Below, one piece after another: positions 451 through 61,415 of a stretch of DNA of 64,000 nt. The notes under the pieces are model-generated. The model had not been told where the DNA came from and searched no databases. It was given only the letters and a program-made list of their open reading frames with translations. The first letter of the stretch is position 1. The number at the start of each line of letters is the position of its first letter. The stretch is from Mobula hypostoma. Taxonomy: Eukaryota. The position numbers were made by a program, and so were the translations under genes. The stretch covers positions 112,718,001-112,782,000 of the forward strand of contig NC_086097.1 in NCBI RefSeq assembly GCF_963921235.1. Direction: 5' to 3'.

Positions 451-1385
451 ATGAGTGTGAGGGCAGTTTGTTCTCGGTGCCGGATGTGGGAGGCCCTGGA
501 GTCTCCAAGCCTCCTGGACGTCCACATCTGCGCCAGGTGCGCCGAGATGCAGCTCCTAAGGGACTGCGTTAGGGAACTGGAGCTGCAGCTCGATGACCTT
601 CGTCTGGTCAGGGAGAGTGAGGAGTTGATAGAGAGGAGTTACAGGCAGGTGGTCACACCGGGGCCACGGAAGGCAGACCAGTGGGTCACGGTTAGGAGGG
701 GGAAGGGGAAGAGTCAGGTAATAGAGAGTACCCCGGTGGCTGTGCCCCTTGACAACAGGTACTCCTGTTTGAGTACTGTTGGGGGGGGGGACAGCTTACC
801 CGGGGGAAGTGACAGTGGCCGCGCCTCCGGCACAGAGTCCGGCCCTGTAGCTCAGAAGGGTAGGGAAAGGAAGAGGAGGGCAGTTGTAATAGGGGACTCA
901 ATAGTAAGGGGGTCAGATATGCGATTCTGTGGACGCAGTCCAGAGACCCGGATGGTAGTTTGCTTCCCTGGTGCCAGGGTCCGGGATATTTCTGATCGTG
1001 TCCAAGATATCCTGAAGTGGGAGGGTGAGGAGCCAGAGGTCGTGGTACATATAGGTACCAATGACATAGGTGGGAAAAGGGAAGAGGTCCTGAAAGGAGA
1101 ATATAGGGAGCTAGGAAGGGAGTTGAGAAAAAGGACCGCAAAGTAGTAATCTCGGGATTACTGCCTGTGCCATGCGACAGTGAGAGTAGGAATGCAATGA
1201 GGTGGAGGATAAATGCGTGGCTGAGGGATTGGAGCAGGGGGCAGGGATTCAAGTTTTTGGATCATTGGGACCTCTTTTGGCGCAGGCGTGACCTGTACAA
1301 AAAGGATGGGTTACACTTGAACCCTAGGGGGACCAATATCCTGGCAGGGAGATTAGCGAGGGCTACTGAGATGACTTTAAACTAG
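451..1385 (+). pseudogene. CR1 ORF1p: Cys/His zinc finger, coiled coil and SGNH/GDSL esterase domain; 1-nt frameshift near 1143
   Basis: Motifs CSRC...HICARC, heptad ELELQLDDLR, VIGDSIV, FPGA, HIGTND, then VVISGLLP and DGLHLN after the frameshift (ORFs 424..1146 and 1167..1385). Confidence 0.9.
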
Positions 1386-4300
1386 AATGATTGGGGGGTG
1401 GGAATCAAATTAAAGAGGCTAGGCGAGAGGAGGTTAATTCACAACAGGGAGATGGGAACCAGTGCAGAGAGACAGAGGGGTGTAAAGTGAGGGTAAAAGC
1501 AAAAAGTAGTCAGGTGAAAAGTAGAAGTGGCAGGCCGACAAATCCAGGGCAAGCATCAAAAAGGACGACTTTTCAACATAATTGTATAAGGGCTAAGAGA
1601 GTTGTAAAAGAGCGCCTGAAGGCTTTGTGTGTCAATGCCAGGAGCATTCGTAACAAGGTGGATGAATTAAAAGTGCAGATTGTTATTAATGAATATGATA
1701 TAGTTGGGATCACAGAGACGGCTCCAGGGTGACCCAGGATAGGAGCTCAACATTCAGGGATATTCAATATTCGGGGGGGATAGACATGAAAGAAAAGGAG
1801 GTGGGGTGGCGTTGCTGGTTAGCGAGGAGATTAACGCAATAGAAAGGAAGGACATAAGCCGGGAAGATGTGGAATCGATATGGGTAGAGCTGCATAACAC
1901 TAAGGGGCAGAAAACGCTGGTGGGAGTTGTGTACAGGCCACCTAACAGTAGTAGTGAGGTCGGAGATGGTATTAAACAGGAAATTAGAAATGTGTTCAAT
2001 AAAGGAACAGCAGTTATAATGGGTGACTTCAATCTACATGTAGATTGGGTGAACCAAATTGGTAAAGGTGCTGAGGAAGAGGATTTCTTGGAATGTATGC
2101 GGAATGGTTTTTTGAACCAACATGTCGAGGAACCAGCTAGAGAGTAGGCTATTCTAGACTGGGTATTGAGTAATGAGGAAGGGTTAATTAGCAATCTTGT
2201 TGTGAGAGGCCCCTTGGGTAAGAGTGACCATAATATGGTGGAATTCTTCTTTAAGATGGAGAGTGACATAGTTAATTCAGAAACAAAGGTTCTGAACTTA
2301 AAGAAGGGTAACTTTTAAGGTATGAGACGTGAATTAGCTAAGATAGACTGGCAAATGACACTTAAAGGATTGACGGTGGATATGCAATGGCAAGCATTTA
2401 AAGATTGCATGGATGAACTACAACAATTGTTCATCCCAGTTTGACAAAAAAATAAATCAAGGAAGGTAGTGCACCCGTGGCTGACAAGGGAAATTAGGGA
2501 TAGTATCAATTCCATAGAAGAAGCATACAAATTAGCCAGAAAAAGTGGCTCACCTGAGGACTGGGAGAAATTCAGAGTTCAGCAGAGGAGGATAAAGGGC
2601 TTAATTAGGAAGGGGAAAAAAGATTACGAGAGAAAACCAGCAGGGAACTTAAAAACTGACTGTAAAAGCTTTTATAGATATGTGAAAAGAAAAAGATTGC
2701 TTAAGACAAATGTAGGTCCCCTACAGACAGAAACAGGTGAATTGATTATGGGGAGCAAGGACATGGCAGACCAATTGAATAATTACTTTGGTTCTGTCTT
2801 CACTAAGGAGGACATAAATAATCTTCTGGAAATAGTAGGGGACAGAGGGTCCAGTGAGATGGAGGAACTGAGGGAAATACATGTTAGTAGGGAAGTGGTG
2901 TTAGGTAAATTGAAGGGATTAAAGGCAGATAAATCCTCAGGGCCAGATGGTCTGCATCCCAGAGTGCTTAAGGAAGTAGCCCAAGAAATAGTGGATGCAT
3001 TAGTGATAATTTTTCAAAACTCTTTAGATTCTGCACTAGTTCCTGAGGATTGGAGGGTGGCTAATGTAACCCCACTTTTTAAAAAAGGAGGGAGAGAGAA
3101 ACCAGGGAATTATAGACCGGTTAGCCTAACATCGGTGGTGGGGAAACTGCTAGAGTCAGTTATCAAAGATGTGATAACAGCATATTTGGAAAGCGGTGAA
3201 ATCATCGGACAAAGTCAGCATGGATTTGTGAAAGGAAAATCATATCTGACGAATCTCATAGAATTTTTTGAGGATGTAACTAGTAGAGTGGATAGGGGAG
3301 AACCAGTGGATGTGGTATATTTGGATTTTCAAAAGGCTTTTGACAAGGTCCCACACAGGAGATTAGTGTGCAAACTTAAAGCACACGGTATTGGGGGTGA
3401 GGTATTGATGTGGATAGAGAATTGGTTGGCAGACAGGAAGCAAGGAGTGGGAATAAACAGGACCTTTTCAGAATGGCAGGCAGTGACTAGTGGGGTACTA
3501 CAAGGCTCAGTGCTGTGACCCCAGTTGTTTACAATATATATTAATGACTTGGATCAGGGAATTAAATGCAGCATCTCCAAGTTTGCGGATGACACGAAGC
3601 TGGGCGGCAGTGTTAGCTATGAGGAGGATGCTAAGAGGATGCAGGGTGACTTGGATAGGTTAGCTGAGTGGGCAAATTCATGGCAGATGCAATTTAATGT
3701 GGATAAATGTGAAGTTACCCACTTTGGTGGCAAAAACAGGAAAACGGATTATTATCTGAATGGTGGCCGATTCGGAAAAGGGGTGGTGCAATGAGACCTG
3801 AGTGTCATTATACACCAGTCATTGAAAGTGGGCATGCAGGTACAGCAGGCGGTGAAAAAGGCGAATGGTATGCTGGCATTTATAGCAAGAGGATTCGAGT
3901 ACAGGAGCAGGGAGGTACTGCTGCAGTTGTACAAGGCCTTGGTGAGACCACACCTGGAGTATTGTGTGCAGTTTTGGTCCCCTAATCTGAGGAAAGGCAT
4001 CCTTGCCATAGAAGGAGTACAAAGAAGGTTCACCAGATTGATTCCTGGGATGGCAGGACTTTCATATGATGAAAAACTGGATGAACTAGGCTTATACTCA
4101 TTGGAATTTAGAAGATTGAGGGGGGATCTGATTGAAACGTATAAAATCCTAAAGGGATTGGACAGGCTAGATGCAGGAAGATTGTTCCCGATGTTGGGGA
4201 AGTCCAGAACGAGGGATCACAGTTTGAGGATAAAGGGGAAGCCTTTTAGGACCGAGATTAGGAAAAACTTCTTCACACAGAGAGTGGTGAATCTGTGGAA

Positions 4301-4421
4301 TTCTCTGCCACAGTAAACAGTTGAGGCCAGTTCATTGGTTATATTTGAGAGGGAGTTAGATATGGCCCTTGTGGCTAAAGGGATCGGGGGTATGGGGGGA
4401 AGGCTGGTACAGGGTTCTGAG
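1376..4421 (+). pseudogene. CR1 ORF2p (APE endonuclease + reverse transcriptase), disrupted
   Basis: ORF pieces 1391..1732, 1806..2147, 2469..3518, 3525..3794 and 3822..4316 are collinear with the near-intact minus-strand copy. Confidence 0.93.
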
Positions 4422-4512
4422 TTGGATGATCAGCCATTATCATACTCAATGGCGGTGCAGGCTCGAAGGGCCAAATGGCCTACTCCTGCACCTATTTTCT
4501 ATGTTTCTATGT

Positions 4513-18329: not shown

Positions 18330-18688
18330 CTAAAGAACAAAGGGCAGAATTGCACCAACAGAACTAGAACCAAAATAAAGTTCACTGCAGTGCCAAGTGT
18401 TCAATATGATCATGATGCTGTTACACTGAGACAATGATTCGGGTTGGTAAAGATGTGAATGGATGCAGGGACTGGCTGTTCTTGAAACTGGTGGAGCGGG
18501 ACTTCTGTACTTCCTGACGGTAGCTGTGATAAGATGGCATGACCCTGATGGTTGAGCTCTTTGACAATAAATGTAACCTTCCCGAAGCTGCACTACACGC
18601 AGATACTTTCAATGGTGGGGAGGAATGTGCTGAAGGTATATTGGGCTGAGTTCACTAATCTCTGCAGCTTCATATGTTCCTGTGCATT
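18330..18688 (-). mobile_element. Rex1/Babar-type LINE 3' fragment, adjacent to the ERV 5' LTR
   Basis: Similar to 31740-32000 (ctgttcttgaaactggtg, ttcaatggtggggagg). Confidence 0.6.
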
Positions 18689-19104
18689 TGTAGCGTGAAA
18701 GGTTAACACTATGCACTGGTCGATGGCCCCTGCCACCATGTTAGTTATTGATTGGCCCATGTGAGGAAAGCTGCAGCTTTTCCGTTGGTTGCTTCTGATA
18801 CCATGGTGCCAGCTTCCAGCATCAAAGTACTGTTAGCGTATAAATCTAGCACATGTGGGGCTCTCGCTCTCTCAGGGCTCACCACAGACAGGGGGATCAC
18901 ATGACTGGTGCCATTGAAAGATTTGAAAGTGCGCTACAGATAAAGGGTCTGTGGGCACACTTAAATAGCTATCTGCATGACTTGAATGCTTTAGTGAATG
19001 ATTTTAGTATCTGTCTTTGACTTGTTAATAAACAGTTAAAACTTACCTATAATTGGTGTCCTCTGTCTCTTTACCGAATCTGCGAACCTAATTCCACGCA
19101 ACCA
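18689..19104 (+). mobile_element. 5' LTR of an endogenous retrovirus
   Basis: Starts TGTAGCGTG and ends CACGCAACCA (imperfect inverted termini). Contains TATAAA at ~18839 and AATAAA at ~19027. A PBS-like sequence follows 2 nt downstream. Confidence 0.75.
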
Positions 19105-19106
19105 TT

Positions 19107-19127
19107 GGCATATTCAGCAAGGATTCA
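19107..19127 (+). promoter_or_regulatory. Primer-binding site resembling the complement of tRNA-Ser
   Basis: TGGCATATTCAGCAAGGATTC compared with TGGCGTAGTCGGCAGGATTC: two CpG-type changes, one transversion and one extra A. Confidence 0.7.
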
Positions 19128-20235
19128 GTAATGGAATAAAAGATGAAAATGTTTAAAATGTTTAAAAGTAATAAAGAGAACCCATGTGTAAGGAATGCCG
19201 AGGCCTGGGGAGGACTGATAAACAATCCGGGATTCGGAAGTCTTGCCAACCTACTGGTGGGCTACGCCAAGCTGGTGGACTGGTCAGACAAGCTGGAAGC
19301 CCACAGGGTGAAAATGGGACACCATTTTGTGTCCATGCTGAATGAAGTAGGGATCCCATTTAAGAACAGGAGCCAGAAAGGACTTTTTTGGCCGCTGGTG
19401 GCCATCACGAAGTGACAGTGTGAGATAATTTCACAGAATGAGCAGGAAATTGAAAGCTTTAAAAACAAAGTGGATGAGTTGATTCAGTACTGTATCAACA
19501 TAGGGGAGGTTGCCTGCTTGGCCCAGACCCTGGCTAAAGAAACTGGAGGACAAGGGTACCAAGATAGCCTGTGGTTGTAAAAGTGTGGCAATTAGAGGCT
19601 GCCCAAAAGGCGAATTGGCAACCGGAACAACTTTAATGCTGTGGATAGGTGACCCTGACGCGTGGGGGGGGGGGATATCTGGTTCTGTAGCGAGGATGGG
19701 GAAGAAAGGTGAGATGAGAGTCCTGCAATTCCTCCTCGAAATGACCGCCCTCCCCTTTATGCAGCAGAACCAGTTGTCAGAATATGTTTTGAACTTTGCA
19801 TTTTTTGCAGCCATTTAATGTAACAAAATGGAGTAGACAATCCCCAAGTGCTAAGCTAATATGTTACAATGTATGTCCGTCACCACAAGAATGTGCTTAC
19901 TGAAGGAATAGGTGCCTCCCAGCACCCATTGTACTGAACACTCTGTAAAAATAAGGAAGTAGCAGAGATGAATCAACCACAGATGGCAGATTACAACAAA
20001 TGTATCAGAAGGACTGTACTTTCTGGAAATAGTAACCTTGTCTTGTTCCTATGCATGAAAAGAACACTTTGTAAACAGTGTGTTGGAGGTCTCCTACCAT
20101 CCCTGATGGAAGCAGAGGTGAACTCTCCGTTTGCAAATAATAAAGCCACTTAATAAACATCCGCTTAGTGTGGGTAACATACATCAAAGTTGCTGGTGAA
20201 TGCAGCAGGCCAAGCAGCATCTATAGGAAGAGGTG

Positions 20236-20272
20236 CAGTCGACGTTTCAGGCCGAGACCCTTCGTCAGGACT
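20236..20272 (-). ncRNA. Minimal type I hammerhead ribozyme motif (Penelope-type)
   Basis: Minus strand reads AGTC-CTGACGA-AGGGTCTCGGCCT-GAAA-CGTC-GACT: core boxes, stem I AGTC/GACT, stem II, and a GUC cleavage triplet. Confidence 0.7.
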
Positions 20273-20285
20273 AACTTCGTCCGTT

Positions 20286-20321
20286 AGTCCTGACGAAGGG
20301 TCTTGGCCTGAAACATCGACT
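20286..20321 (+). ncRNA. Second hammerhead motif, with GTC changed to ATC at the cleavage site
   Basis: AGTC-CTGACGA-AGGGTCTTGGCCT-GAAA-CATC-GACT. Confidence 0.55.
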
Positions 20322-21699
20322 GCACCTCTTCCTATAGATGCTGCTTGGCCTGCTGCGTTCACCAGCAACTTTGATGTATGTTGCTTGAATTTCCAGCATC
20401 TGCAGAATTCCTGTTGTTCGCTTAGTGTGGGTACTGTGTTTTTTGTGAGACCTAGTGGAGACATAGTCAACACAGCACCAGCTAAACCAGTGACCACTGG
20501 TGTGGGTTTTGGCCCATTGCTCCTCCCATGGGGCAGGGAGAGAAAGAGGAATGTGGGGTGGATAGCACAGCATTCTCCCTCCAAGACGACACTGCTTAGA
20601 GTTTTCTGCTAAGGAACTGGCAGAAATGAGGTATGGACATTGACAAAAGCTGGGGACGCCTCCAGTCATGTAACCATTGAGGATATGGGATGCAGGTGGG
20701 GGTGGGGGTGGGGTTGTTGGAGCAATTTTATCTGGGGGAAGGGTGCTGTCATCTCATCACATGATAAATAATGCACTGAGAGTTCTGCCTCACTTCCCAA
20801 GTGAATAATGTATCTTTATGGGATCTAGTGACAGAGTTGGTTAAGGAGAGGTACTCCTCCCTTCTCGAATGGGATTTAAAGTCCCAGGAGGAGTGGAGCA
20901 CACTAGAGAAAGGGACTTTGGTCAAACGGGGCTGTGCATGACCGTGGCGGTGACCCACCATTGGATAGTGAACTGGCGGGCTGCTTGGTTAAAACAACAC
21001 AGGTGCCTAATATTTGGTAATGGTTTAACCCTTAAGAGCAAGTTACTTTCCAAAATGGTTTAAAGTACAAATGGTTTGTATATTTCAAATGTTGTGGCTA
21101 CATGTCAATTTACTTGAGTGAGAGAGAGAGAGAGAGAGCGTTTCTGAGGGAGTGAGTGCAAAGGCTGCCATGAGTTTGCTCAATTAATATTGGAGGTTTG
21201 AATTAATCCTCTACTTCAGCGGAAAGGTGACCAATTGAAATATTTTGTTACTCTGTGAAGTAAATTTGCAGGAGCTCTTATCTTTTAAGAGGCTATGCCT
21301 TTAAGATGCTGTGTGAATGTGTTAATGCTTCAAAGGCCATCTTTTCTTTCCCCTTTGTTCTTTGGAAAATATGAAAATTAACTATTTATTCTAAATTTTG
21401 TAGTTACTTGTGAAGGTTCTGATTTTTGTTTGGTCTTATTTGTGTTTTTAGTTTTTTTGCTTTCTCGAGAATTGATTTTAGAGGGAGACACAATTCCACA
21501 TTGGAAATCTGTGCAACTCTATTCTGGACATGTGATGCTCACATGTCAGAGGAAAAGGATTGTTGGAAGATATTATCCAGCTTCTTCAGCTTTGGCGTTT
21601 TGTTTTGGGAGAAATGGGGTGTGGGTAGTCCATTCCAACCAACCTTGCCTCAGAGTTTTGCAAAAGCAATAAAAAACTTCAACCTTAGTAATCTCCAGC

Positions 21700-22199
21700 A
21701 GAACAAGTGATTAAAGGACTGGTACTTTCCTGGATATGGTTTATCTAATCCAAAGGTCCTGTCTCTGAGAGTGATTCCCCAACCAAAAAGGTAGGGAAAA
21801 GAATGTTGGTGTAGTCAATATAATGACCACAGATCTAATTAGTCAGAGAGATATGGCAACTGTGAGCAGGAACAGCATCCTGGGATAACTGTCTATGTGG
21901 AATGGGGCTGTGAAGGTGGGCACTTCCTGGACCCTGGATGGTTCTTATTGGATATGTGCCTCCTGGGCCTCCCCATCGCTACCCATGTGGTGATACAGCT
22001 ACTGCTATCCGGGATATGTTGTACCAAACATACATCATTGGGCACCCTGCCCATGATAGTCTGAGTAGTAAGAGGTATATAACAGAGGCAGAAAGGTTTT
22101 TGGATGAAAGCCTTCCTCACCCCCCTCCCCCGGTATACTCCAGCCAGGCTGTCCCGGGAAATGATAGATTATCTGCTTGCAGAAACCTGTGCTGTTATT
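21700..22199 (+). pseudogene. env: Retroviral env remnant (SU C-terminus, furin-like site, internally deleted TM)
   Basis: GSYWICASWASPSLPMW*YSYCYPGYVVPNI from 21940; SSKR|YITEAERF at 22064-22099; ARLSREMI-DYLLAE-TCAVI at 22143-22199 (remnant of the immunosuppressive domain and the first cysteine of the CX6CC motif). Confidence 0.7.
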
Positions 22200-22688
22200 A
22201 ACCATTACTTCATACAAGGCGAAACTCAACACCATGAATGGCTGTAATGCTTCAGCCCCAGATGAGCTCAGCAACTTTTATGCATGCTTTGAAAGGGAGA
22301 ACAATACGACACTGGTGTGAATCCCCGCAGCATCTGATGATCTTGTGAGCTCTGACTCGGAGGCCGATGCTAGAACATCTTTCAAGAGGATGAAACCTCA
22401 CAAGGCGTTAGATCTTGATGGAGTACCTGGTAGGGAACTGAAAACCTGTGTCAACCTTCATGTTCAATGATATCTTCAGTCTCTCATTGCTGTAGTCTGA
22501 ATTTCCCACCTGCTTCAAATGGGTGACAATCATATCAATGACCTAGAAGAGTAGGGTGAGCAGCCTCAATGAATATCATCCAGTTGCACTCACATCTACT
22601 GTGATGAGGTGCTTTAAGAGGGTGGTCATGGCCAAAATCAACTCCTGCCTAAGCAAGGATCTGGACCCGCTGCAATTTGTCTATCATG
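22200..22688 (+). mobile_element. Rex1/Babar-type LINE internal RT fragment
   Basis: [42 protein letters not shown]. Confidence 0.8.
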
Positions 22689-57407: not shown

Positions 57408-58156
57408 ATATAATCAATAAAGAATTGAAGGGAAGGGGTATGAAGTTAATGTTTTCAATGTGGACATGTAAAAGATTTTTAACCAAGTAGTGCACAATCA
57501 ACATTGCCAAAACTGCAACCCTGGGAATTAAAGAAGAAGTAACCATGTTAACATAAAATTGGCCAAGGAACAGCGGGATATGTTGACCCTTAGCTTGGAC
57601 CACTTAGGTTAGGATGCAAGTCTAAATAATTCAAACTACTCACAACCTTAATAAAACAACTTATATTAAATTCAATTATCTCACTAATTCCTAAATTCTA
57701 CCGTTTCTTTACACCAAAATAGGGGCCAACTGACTTCTTCACAGACACTCCTCTTATCAGCCTGTTTTCTTCCCACAAGTAACTCCTTATTTTGAAAGTG
57801 ATCTCTGATTAGCAGATTATCAGTAGAGCCTTTGTTACATCCACTTCCAAGTGCTTCCATACAGAAATGATAGCTTCCACTTCTTCCATTACCTGGTAGG
57901 AACTACAACATTTGTTTGGTCTACTTTGTCCTTGAATTGTTACAGGAATCTGTTCTCCAGATTTGTAATTTCTTCAGGCCAACAGAATGGGTAGAAAATT
58001 CATCAGACCAGAGGGAGTTATACAACGATATCCCAAGAGTACATGTTCATTGATTTGTCCCCATCTTCCGGCCCCTGACCAAAATATATCGGCTGGCAAT
58101 ATTAACAAAAAGTCTAATCTGTAATCTCATCTCATTGTCATTGTCTTTTCTATGAA

Positions 58157-61100
58157 TATAGAAACATAGAAACATAGAAAATAGGTGCAGGAGTAGGCCA
58201 TTCGGCCCTTCGAGCCTGCACCGCCATTTATTATAATCATGGCTGATCATCCAATTCAGAACCCCGCCCCAGCCTTCCCTCCATACCCCCTGATCCCCGT
58301 AGCCACAAGGGCCATATCTAACTCCTTCTTAAATATAGCCAATGAACTGGCCTCAACAGTTTCCTGTGGCAGAGAATTCCACAGATTCACCACTCTCTGT
58401 GTGAAGAAGATTTTCCTAATCTCGGTCCTAAAAGGCTTCCCCTTTATCCTCAAACTGTGACCCCTTGTTCTGGACTTCCCCAACATCGGGATCAATCTTC
58501 CTGCATCTAGCCTGTCCAATTCCTTTACGATTTTATACGTTTTAATCAGATCCCCCCTCAATCTTCTAAATTCCAACGAGTACAAGCCCAGTTCATCCAG
58601 TCTTTCTTCATATGAAAGTCCTGCCATCCCAGGAATCAATCTGGTGAACCTTCTTTGTACTCCCTCTATGGCAAAGATGTCTTTCCTCAGATTAGGGGAC
58701 CAAAACTGCACACAATACTCCAGGTGTGGTCTCACCAAGGCCTTGTACAACTGCAGTAGTACCTCCCTGCTCCTGTACTCGAATCCTCTCGCTATAAATG
58801 CCAGCATACCATTCACCTTTTTCACCGCCTGCTGTACCTGCATGCCCACTTTCAATGACTGGTGTATAATGACACCCAGGTCTCGTTGCACCTCCCCTTT
58901 TCCTAATCGGCCACCATTCAGATAATAATCTGTTTTCCTATTTTTGCCACCAAAGTGGATAACTTCATGTTTATCCACATTAAATTGCATCTGCCATGAA
59001 TTTGCCCACTCACCCAACCTATCCAAGTCACTCTGCATCCTCTTAGCATCCTCCTCACAGCTAACACCGCCACCCAGCTTCGTGTCATCCGCAAACTTGG
59101 AGACGCTGCATTTAATTCCCTCATCCAAGTCATTAATATATATTGTAAACAACTGGGGTCCCAGCACTGAGCCTTGCGCTACCCCACTAGTCACCGCCTG
59201 CCATTCCGAAAAGGTCCCGTTTATTCCCACTCTTTGCTTCCTGTCTGCTAACCAATTCTCCATCCACATCAATACCTTACCCCCAATACCATGTGCTTTA
59301 AGATTGCACACTAATCTCCTGTGTGGGACCTTGTCAAAAGCCTTTTGAAAATCCAAATATACCACATCCACTGGTTCTCCCCTATCCACTCTACTAGTTA
59401 CATCCTCAAAAAATTCTATGAGATTCGTCAGACATGATTTTCCTTTCACAAATCCATGCTGACTTTGTCCGATGATTTCACTGCTTTCCAAATGTGCTGT
59501 TATCACATCTTTGATAACTGACTCCAGCAGTTTCCCCACCACCGACGTTAGGCTAACCGGTCTATAATTCCCCGGTTTCTCTCTCCCTCCTTTTTTAAAA
59601 AGTGGGGTTACATTAGCCACCCTCCAATCCTCAGGAACTAGTCCAGAATCTAACGAGTTTTGAAAAATTATCACTAATGCATCCACTATTTCTTGGGCTA
59701 CTTCCTTAAGCACTCTAGGATGCAGACCATCTGGCCCTGGGGATTTATCTGCCTTCAATCCCTTCAATTTACCTAACACCACTTCCCTACTAACATATAT
59801 TTCGCTCATTTCCTCCATCTCACTGGACCCTCTGTCCCCTACTATTTCTGGAAGATTATTTATGTCCTCCTTAGTGAAGACAGAACCAAAGTAATTATTC
59901 AATTGGTCTGCCATGTCCTTGCTCCCCATAATCAATTCACCTGTTTCTGTCTGTAGGGGACCCACATTTGTCTTTCCCAGTCTTTTCCTTTTTACATACC
60001 TATAAAAGCTTTTACAGTCAGTTTTTATGTTCCCTGCCAGTTTTCTCTCATAATCTTTTTTCCCCTTCCTAATTAAACCCTTTGTCCTCCTCTGCTGAAC
60101 TCTGAATTTCTCCCAGTCCTCAGGTGTGCCACTTTCTCTGGCTAATTTGTATGCTTCTTCTTTGGAATTGATACTATCCCTAATTTCTCTTGTCAGTCAC
60201 GGGTACACTACCTTCCTTGATTTATTCTTTTGCCAAACTGGGATGAACAATTGTTGTAGTTCATCCATGCAACCTTTAAATGCTTGCCATTGCATATCCA
60301 CTGTCAATCCTTTAAGTGTCATTTGCCAGTCTATCTTAGCTAATTCACGTCTCATACCTTCAAAGTTACCCCTCTTTAAGTTCAGAACCTTTGTTTCTGA
60401 ATTAACTATGTCACTCTCCATCTTAATGAAGAATTCCACCATATTATGGTCACTCTTACCCAAGGGGCCTCTCACGACAAGATCGCTAATTAACCCTTCC
60501 TCATTGCTCAAAACCCAGTCCAGAATAGCCTGCTCTCTAGTTGGTTCCTCGACATGTTGGTTCAAAAAACCATCCCGCATACATTCCAAGAAATCCTCTT
60601 CCTCAGCGCCTTTACCAATTTGGTTCACCCAGTCTACATGTAGATTGAAGTCACCCATTATAACTGCTGTTCCTTTATTGCACACATTTCTAATTTCCTG
60701 TTTAATACCATCTCCGACCTCACTACTACTGTTAGGTGGCCTGTACACAACTCCCACCAGCGTCTTCTGCCCCTTAGTGTTACGCAGCTCTACCCATATC
60801 GATTCCACATCTTCCCGGCTTATGTCCTTCCTTTCTATTGTGTTAGTCTCTTCTTTAACCAGCAACGCCACCCCACCTTCCCTTCCTTCATGTCTATCCC
60901 TCCTGAATATTGAATATCCCTGAATGTTGAGCTCCCATCCTTGGTCACCCTGGAGCCATGTCTCTGTGATCCCAACTATATCATAATCATTAATAACAAT
61001 CTGCACTTTCAATTCATCCACCTTATTACGAATGCTCCTTGCATTGACACACAAAGCCTTCAGGCGCTCTTTTACAACTCTCTTAGCCCTTATACAATTA

Positions 61101-61415
61101 TGTTGAAAAGTGGCCCTTTTTAATGCTTGTCCTTGATTTGTCGGCCTGCCACTTTTACTTTTCTCCTTAGTACTTTTTGCTTCTACCCTCACTTTACATC
61201 CCTCTGTCTCTCTGCACTGGTTCCCATCTCCCTGTTGTGAACTAACCTCCTCACGCCTAGCCTCTTTAATTTGATTCCCACCCCCCAACCATTCTAGTTT
61301 AAGGTCACCTCAGTAGCCCCCGCTAATCTCCCTGCCAGGATATTGGTCCCCCTAGGATTCAAGTGTAACCGCTCCTTTTTGTACAGGTCACGCCTGCGCC
61401 AAAAGAGGTCCCAAT
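58157..61415 (-). mobile_element. Young CR1 LINE, same family as 139-4512, truncated within ORF1
   Basis: Reverse complement is highly similar to 1262-4512. Tail (atagaaac)n. Confidence 0.96.
58256..61288 (-). pseudogene. CR1 ORF2p (~1010 codons) with one in-frame stop at 60199-60197
   Basis: ORFs 60197..61288 and 58256..59965 share a frame. I translated 60196-59966 by hand and found no stop. The TGA corresponds to TGG (HPWLT) in the other copy. Confidence 0.93.

Follow-up and report, generated by a model that had tools for sequence, protein, structure and literature searches.

The window, i.e. the whole 64-kb stretch of ray DNA analyzed here, contains on its forward strand the remains of an endogenous retrovirus (ERV) in which an LTR, a primer-binding site (PBS) and gag are followed by a U-rich non-coding module and an env remnant (Table 1). 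A prior sequence-only reading had described an LTR with TATA and polyadenylation signals, a Ser-type PBS 2 nt after it, a series of Gag motifs and an env remnant, with neither pol nor a 3' LTR; these descriptions hold, the terminal CA of the LTR being present only in sibling copies. The LTR sits within a host repeat (the loose sequence ends at 18688), and its 3' end was placed at 19103 by register with the sibling LTRs, where the window has CAACC versus CAACA in the siblings, the final base having decayed. Relative to the host tRNA-Ser(AGA) gene, the PBS has one extra base, and two of its three mismatches are CG-to-CA changes; it scores best among the 1226 TGG-starting 20-mers of the window. 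Two ATGs lie 3' of it, at 19131 and 19140.

All the Gag motifs that had been quoted are present in the order given, across frames. Rather than matching Gypsy elements or nothing, the window gag matches a Gag of the stingray Hemitrygon that is named Fv1-like (E 7e-12), and a DNA profile of sibling gag copies recovers it on either side of a later insertion (19101-19774, E 3e-123; 20473-21082, E 1.5e-69). Within that insertion is a head-to-head pair of short repeats, which we take to be Penelope-type ends; the pair carries a 15-bp duplication and is absent from organism B, indicating that the pair is recent. The sole Rfam match is a below-threshold miRNA on this inserted inverted repeat. Gag breaks off in the capsid region near 21010-21025, where it is joined to the foreign non-coding module. 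The env remnant is recovered by the sibling env profile (21550-22167, E 1.5e-138) and stops just beyond its cleavage site. Searches of the entire window yielded no match to pol, no second LTR of the family and no original right flank of the provirus. Elsewhere in the window lie two inverted copies of a LINE-type repeat (1264-4512 and 58164-61415, 92-95% identical) and, on the reverse strand, an SnRV-like LTR fragment (57774-57983).

Table 1. Features of the provirus and of the sequences that interrupt or terminate it
Feature	Position in window	Strand	Remarks
5' LTR, 415 bp	18689..19103	+	starts TGTAG; TATAAA at 18839, AATAAA at 19027
PBS, tRNA-Ser(AGA)	19106..19124	+	2 nt past the LTR; 15 of 18 bases as in the host tRNA gene
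gag 5' part: coiled-coil region, WD/GDIW motif, PPLY	19131..19774	+	interrupted by stops and a frameshift
Later insertion splitting gag	19775..20472		inverted repeat pair inside, at 20164-20420
gag capsid region	20473..21020	+	ends part-way, at the module junction
U-rich non-coding module at the place of pol	21010..21558	+	also in SnRV-like and class I defective elements
Gamma-type env remnant: SU 3' part, cleavage site, TM start	21550..22201	+	sibling profile
Unrelated interspersed repeat where the provirus stops	22202..22685		remaining env and 3' LTR absent

Copy number, integration and age of the family

The LTR and the Gag, used as genome queries as the earlier reading had advised, recovered a family of related copies. 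The LTR is matched 39 times in the 3.48-Gb genome, mostly at 64-83% identity; the Gag N-terminus matched all 150 scored sequences, these being the best 150 of 581 candidates, which gives at least 150 gag matches, and the env piece matched 138 of the 150 scored (the best 150 of 384 candidates). Some copies retain two LTRs enclosing gag and env, such that the LTR is both repeated and linked to this gag elsewhere in the genome. For eight sibling copies with automatically called ends (one more gave no call, and the window copy was not among them), 26 of 40 flank letters agree when target duplications of 5 bp are assumed, versus 8 of 32 for 4 bp and 11 of 48 for 6 bp; hence, these copies were integrated by an integrase.

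The paired LTRs are 0.23-0.31 apart (K2P; the 13 of 19 pairs having at least 300 aligned columns). The elephant shark ERV study (Han 2015), for its part, had to assume a rate for dating (PMC4422223). Contigs of three other organisms run across the junction of the window LTR with its flank, with identities of ~98%, 91% and 87%. Further contigs do so at the two borders of the module, with gag and with env, implying that the insertion is older than the split of these organisms. Datasets X10 and X12 had no contig spanning the LTR-flank junction, and X11, with 28 letters on one side, was left out. No RNA dataset is listed as holding the window stretch. At a module-bearing sibling copy (L002; G000:C18:133585.7 kb), the PBS region and the LTR end are matched by contigs of X15 and X18 (organisms A and B; depth 72 and 9), which we guess to be RNA datasets, and transcription of this sibling is possible. 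As for the window copy, it is old and dead, and nothing points to a host function for it.

Classification of the family

As the window copy is devoid of a reverse transcriptase (RT), its class III assignment runs through the gag, LTR and env of its relatives. These include pol-bearing copies with the order gag-PR-RT-connection-RNase H-IN-env, which we traced starting from one copy with a protease and the RT start. The catalytic motif YIDD can be read in L041-L043 and L064. Database matches of the family RT comprise elements of stingray, caecilian, lungfish, frog, owl and killifish (~50-56%), a mouse ERV-L-type element (51%) and class I elements (30%); in the tree alignment the family RT is 43-50% identical to the mouse ERV-L-type row. 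In a careful RT tree of 37 rows, which omitted the short and long-branch rows of a 64-row quick tree and had no SnRV, HERV-S or foamy row, the family copies cluster with two stingray rows (100/96) within a class III group (100/100) that includes the mouse and baboon ERV-L-type rows; row labels were compared by eye with the supplement of PMC7947760. This phylogeny, along with the presence of env, bears out the earlier claim of an env-bearing class III lineage in a cartilaginous fish, and the RT does not group with Gypsy in either tree, which led us to reject membership in the Gypsy/Metaviridae. We likewise rejected an assignment to the mammalian ERV-L proper (MuERV-L/HERV-L), whose marks are a Leu PBS and the absence of env, the present family having a Ser PBS and an env. 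Four copies (L041, L042, L056 and L058) constitute a younger class III subfamily, with tandem repeats of the YIDD segment in some and an internally deleted env in one.

Pfam searches with the window pieces and the family Gag matched no Gag family and detected no zinc knuckle (Cys-His box). The Gag capsid model (pLDDT 57) had no Foldseek match at E 0.001 and reached Z 5.0-5.7 to the Arc, PNMA2 and foamy virus capsids; the ESM Atlas gave 0.86 to foamy Gag, which is a lead only. A PDB sequence search with Gag or with the env of the partner family described below gave no match, and an IMG/VR scan for RT references found nothing. In Narcine, a protein whose annotation is sperm acrosome-associated protein 9 isoform X1 (P0004) reads as a family Gag and is likely a mis-named gene model.

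The sibling envs L023, L026 and L060 display a cleavage site, an ISD, a CX6CC motif and an N-terminal CWxC, all of which, the cleavage site excepted, lie outside the part retained in the window. The family env matches TLV_coat (E 4.6e-4), and its closest relatives are env-like proteins of rays and sharks. Envs of the same group are linked with class I pol at 13 of the 20 env-anchored loci. A quick tree, unrooted, places the window-type envs (98) together with these class I-linked envs (99) and with one sawfish row (96), and sets the env of another class III subfamily apart. Thus, the family env is nearer to co-resident class I envs than to that of the other class III subfamily, which hints at an exchange of env sequences whose direction the tree does not give. 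By their sequences, then, the pol-bearing relatives are class III viruses of the ERV-L-like group with a gamma-type env.

A non-coding module at the place of pol

The lack of pol had previously been put down to decay. Instead, we find that a module common to other retroviral lineages has taken its place in a heritable manner. The window module matches a profile built from SnRV-like copies (E 6.5e-88). The module occurs in 20 of the first 80 loci, every one of them pol-less; among 20 gag-anchored loci taken by gag rank, six have the module, eight have pol pieces, six have neither and none has both. Twenty module-anchored loci divided into 11 class III and nine SnRV-like contexts, and 15 further ones uncovered a third context, namely class I pol from the YxDD region onward. 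Overall, the module is present in 68 of 162 sequences, from loci picked by search rank and not at random. Five of the 68 have an RT-type match next to the module, owing to a Gypsy insertion in two cases and to a class I remnant in the other three; in none of the 162 sequences did it adjoin class III sequence from the protease, the RT or the connection. Sixty-four of the 68 have retroviral neighbors by profile, and the other four (L097, L147, L152 and L161) have downstream DNA in common with SnRV-like or class I copies.

The module has a GC content of 34-39%, is U-rich and is without a long reading frame; its folding z-scores are inconsistent over five copies (block shuffles, 20 each), with no stable fold. 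None of 393 proteins matched it, pol DNA of SnRV-like and class III elements gave no match either, and against the N-terminal halves of class I RTs the best E was 0.5. Two genome searches for a single-copy source, in which the best 40 of 394 and of 544 candidates were scored, yielded none that stood out, and the best partial match (81%) was a retroviral locus, L147. Module identity between lineages (73%) is close to that within them (74-77%), which suggests that the founders were almost identical in the module. The module tree is star-like, with the SnRV-like copies on one side of a 92/87 branch; as it is unrooted, it does not settle the direction of transfer.

Recurrent junctions, chimeras and partner lineages

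The module junctions recur among dispersed copies: one 5' type is found in the window and five loci, another in ~18 loci, and the 3' junctions fall into four types, with several mixed 5'/3' combinations, in copies that are 25% diverged. The 5' junction of the window, lying within the capsid, is common to L001, L002, L006, L007 and L012; with gag thus cut, this subgroup would have required helper Gag too. In L009, class III gag is fused to pieces of SnRV-like gag, followed by the module, class III env and an LTR. Here SnRV-like gag lies inside a class III frame, indicating flow in that direction at least once. In L003, L015, L017 and L130, class III LTR and gag precede the module, and ~1.4 kb of common unidentified DNA replaces the usual env.

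The class I context is equally composite. The module leads directly into class I RT, just before YxDD, in L148, L151, L152, L155 and L158, and a 5' part of SnRV-like gag, the module and class I pol remnants succeed one another in L113, L117, L148, L150, L151, L154 and L158, with a gamma-type env farther along in L151 and L154. For most of these elements mixing SnRV-like and class I parts, a search did not recover the LTRs; hence, they are candidate mobile units.

The SnRV-like partner family (L101-L120) has its own 780-bp LTR, a tRNA-Asn(GTT) PBS and a CCHC Gag, and it includes pol-bearing members without the module. Its RT is 22-39% identical to class III and forms a separate long branch in the RT trees, which lack an SnRV row; compared by eye, the alignment reveals stretches in common with SnRV. 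The partner env resembles F-type fusion proteins (ESM Atlas 0.93-0.94, at a low recognition score). This env and the dual RNase H had raised the possibility of a lokiretrovirus, which we rejected given that the loki rows read CPFGY and the partner LPQGF in the RT alignment, as judged by eye.

Origin of the pol-less elements

In light of these observations, we consider it likely that the window harbors a dead, 3'-truncated copy of a pol-less, ERV-L-like (class III) subfamily, in which a non-coding module replaces pol and which was probably copied by helper viruses. The occurrence of the module in three lineages is probably the trace of sequence exchange among widely different retroviruses. We posit that RNAs from distinct retroviral lineages were co-packaged in the germ line, and that template switches of the reverse transcriptase both into the module and out of it gave rise to chimeras that would have retained the LTR, the Ser primer site and the 5' packaging region and could have been reverse-transcribed and integrated in trans. 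The module might have entered one lineage from some other RNA, crossed to the others by template switching roughly while all of them were multiplying, and thereafter provided homology for more swaps. Following its insertion, the window copy would have decayed, received two insertions and lost its 3' end. Published accounts describe both the copying in trans of defective genomes in which LTRs, PBS and packaging signals are retained and the switching of RT between co-packaged RNA templates (PMC10536682, PMC5131818), the latter mechanism having been reported for host RNAs as well (PMC5131818). The chimeras may instead have arisen by genomic gene conversion or ectopic recombination.

Other accounts of the missing pol fare less well. 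Deletions of pol that are private to a copy or vary between copies are seen in L033, L037, L040, L126 and L127, but such a loss from an otherwise normal class III provirus is an extremely improbable origin for the window copy, as its gag-env interval is not pol-derived and is common to many dispersed copies and to other lineages. The direct passage of the module into class I RT in five loci would fit a module descended from the beginning of the protease/RT region in one of the three lineages (class I being the best candidate) and decayed beyond recognition, and only two cross-lineage transfers would then be required; nevertheless, the failure of the module to match proteins or pol sequences, next to adjoining RT that is still easily recognized, makes this decidedly unlikely. 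If the module were a small mobile element in its own right that had entered several retroviral families time and again directly 3' of gag, pol being lost later, this could account for two module boundaries that recur across contexts (profile positions ~276 and ~1078) and for search candidates running into the hundreds. However, each of the 68 module-bearing sequences has either retroviral neighbors or downstream DNA linking it to SnRV-like or class I copies, none is flanked on both sides by uninterrupted pol, the module ends differ by subgroup, and we noticed no terminal repeats or duplications, and so we hold this to be very unlikely.

We give not quite an even chance to the module being a piece of host mRNA, from an untranslated region, that was captured once by one lineage and passed on passively without a function. 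Its U-richness and its want of a reading frame and a stable fold are in keeping with this; on the other hand, neither search brought up a single-copy source, and the best partial match proved to be retroviral. This alternative differs from the preferred explanation, copying of chimeras by helper viruses, on the origin and role of the module alone, and is compatible with it. On a further, unlikely reading, the module could be a portable cis-acting RNA element aiding packaging, export or splicing, by which defective genomes of three lineages, ~30% alike in RT, rode on each other's machinery, and which served as a homology hub at which class I, class III and SnRV-like viruses exchanged their 5' and 3' halves. 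If so, these loci would be a fossil record of the acquisition of class I env genes by class III viruses.

The virus as such is a new ray member of an already known class III layout. The suggestion that it might be of an undescribed kind does not survive comparison with the literature, given the organization reported for XtERV-S (PMC8278194) and the finding that chondrichthyan ERV RTs mostly belong to clade III (bioRxiv 2023.10.17.562709); class III ERVs are reported to be common in cartilaginous fish. What is new is the shared non-coding module and the cross-lineage chimeras: within a literature search whose coverage left out most subscription journals and Repbase, we found no paper on one non-coding segment common to defective ERVs of three lineages or different classes in rays, and the lineage tables of bioRxiv 2021.11.23.469661 may already list the family. 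That class III viruses carry class I env implies recombination over deep retroviral splits, the intermediates of which are rarely seen. Here one genome furnishes many dated chimeras of three lineages with one non-coding segment in common; together with the env tree, they render cross-lineage co-packaging testable by sequence analysis.

Comparison with known systems

The closest parallel to the layout of the family is XtERV-S of Xenopus tropicalis, which has a Ser PBS, ERV-L-like gag and pol with YIDD, no Cys-His box, gag and pro in the same frame with a stop between them, a 5-bp target duplication, internally deleted copies, and a gamma-type TM with ISD and CX6CC as well as a CWxC near the SU start (PMC8278194). 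It differs in its LTR of 705 bp as against 415 bp in the ray family (PMC8278194). Further, the ray RT clade lies apart from a Xenopus class III row, which may not be XtERV-S itself, every ray copy seen is broken, and the deleted ray copies bear a foreign module. With MuERV-L/HERV-L and Fv1 the family shares RT similarity to the mouse ERV-L-type row and stingray Gag relatives named Fv1-like, but it departs from MuERV-L/HERV-L in its PBS and env. No dUTPase, a further feature of both XtERV-S and MuERV-L/HERV-L, was found in the stingray Gag-Pol model P0077, which may be cut short. Class III pol combined with gamma-type env is known in anamniotes, including ERV-SA.a-Ppe (bioRxiv 2021.11.23.469661).

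As regards the partner family, SnRV-like ERVs are known from the elephant shark (PMC4422223), and snakehead-related viruses are reported from all major vertebrate lineages (Xu et al. 2018, PMC6001957); related literature includes Naville and Volff (PMC4977317) and Wang and Han 2021 (PMC7947760) and 2022 (PMC9040795). CmiERV lineage I of the elephant shark resembles the partner family in SnRV-like RT stretches compared by eye (PMC4422223). It is a counterpart of the partner and not of the window element, the partner having a tRNA-Asn PBS and a fusion-protein-like env.

In their mode of propagation, the ray elements recall the LTR-mediated retrocopies of Tan et al. 2016, in which foreign sequence replaces rather than interrupts the internal ORFs and the chimeras can be recopied (PMC5131818), but the cargo in the ray is non-coding, had no source among the candidates scored and is common to three retroviral lineages. 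They also recall ENS-1 of the chicken and Bhikhari of the zebrafish, pol-less ERV families amplified in trans, ENS-3 being described as sister to ERV-L; those families have intact gag and no env, whereas the ray elements have dead or truncated gag and env remnants (bioRxiv 2024.03.25.586437).
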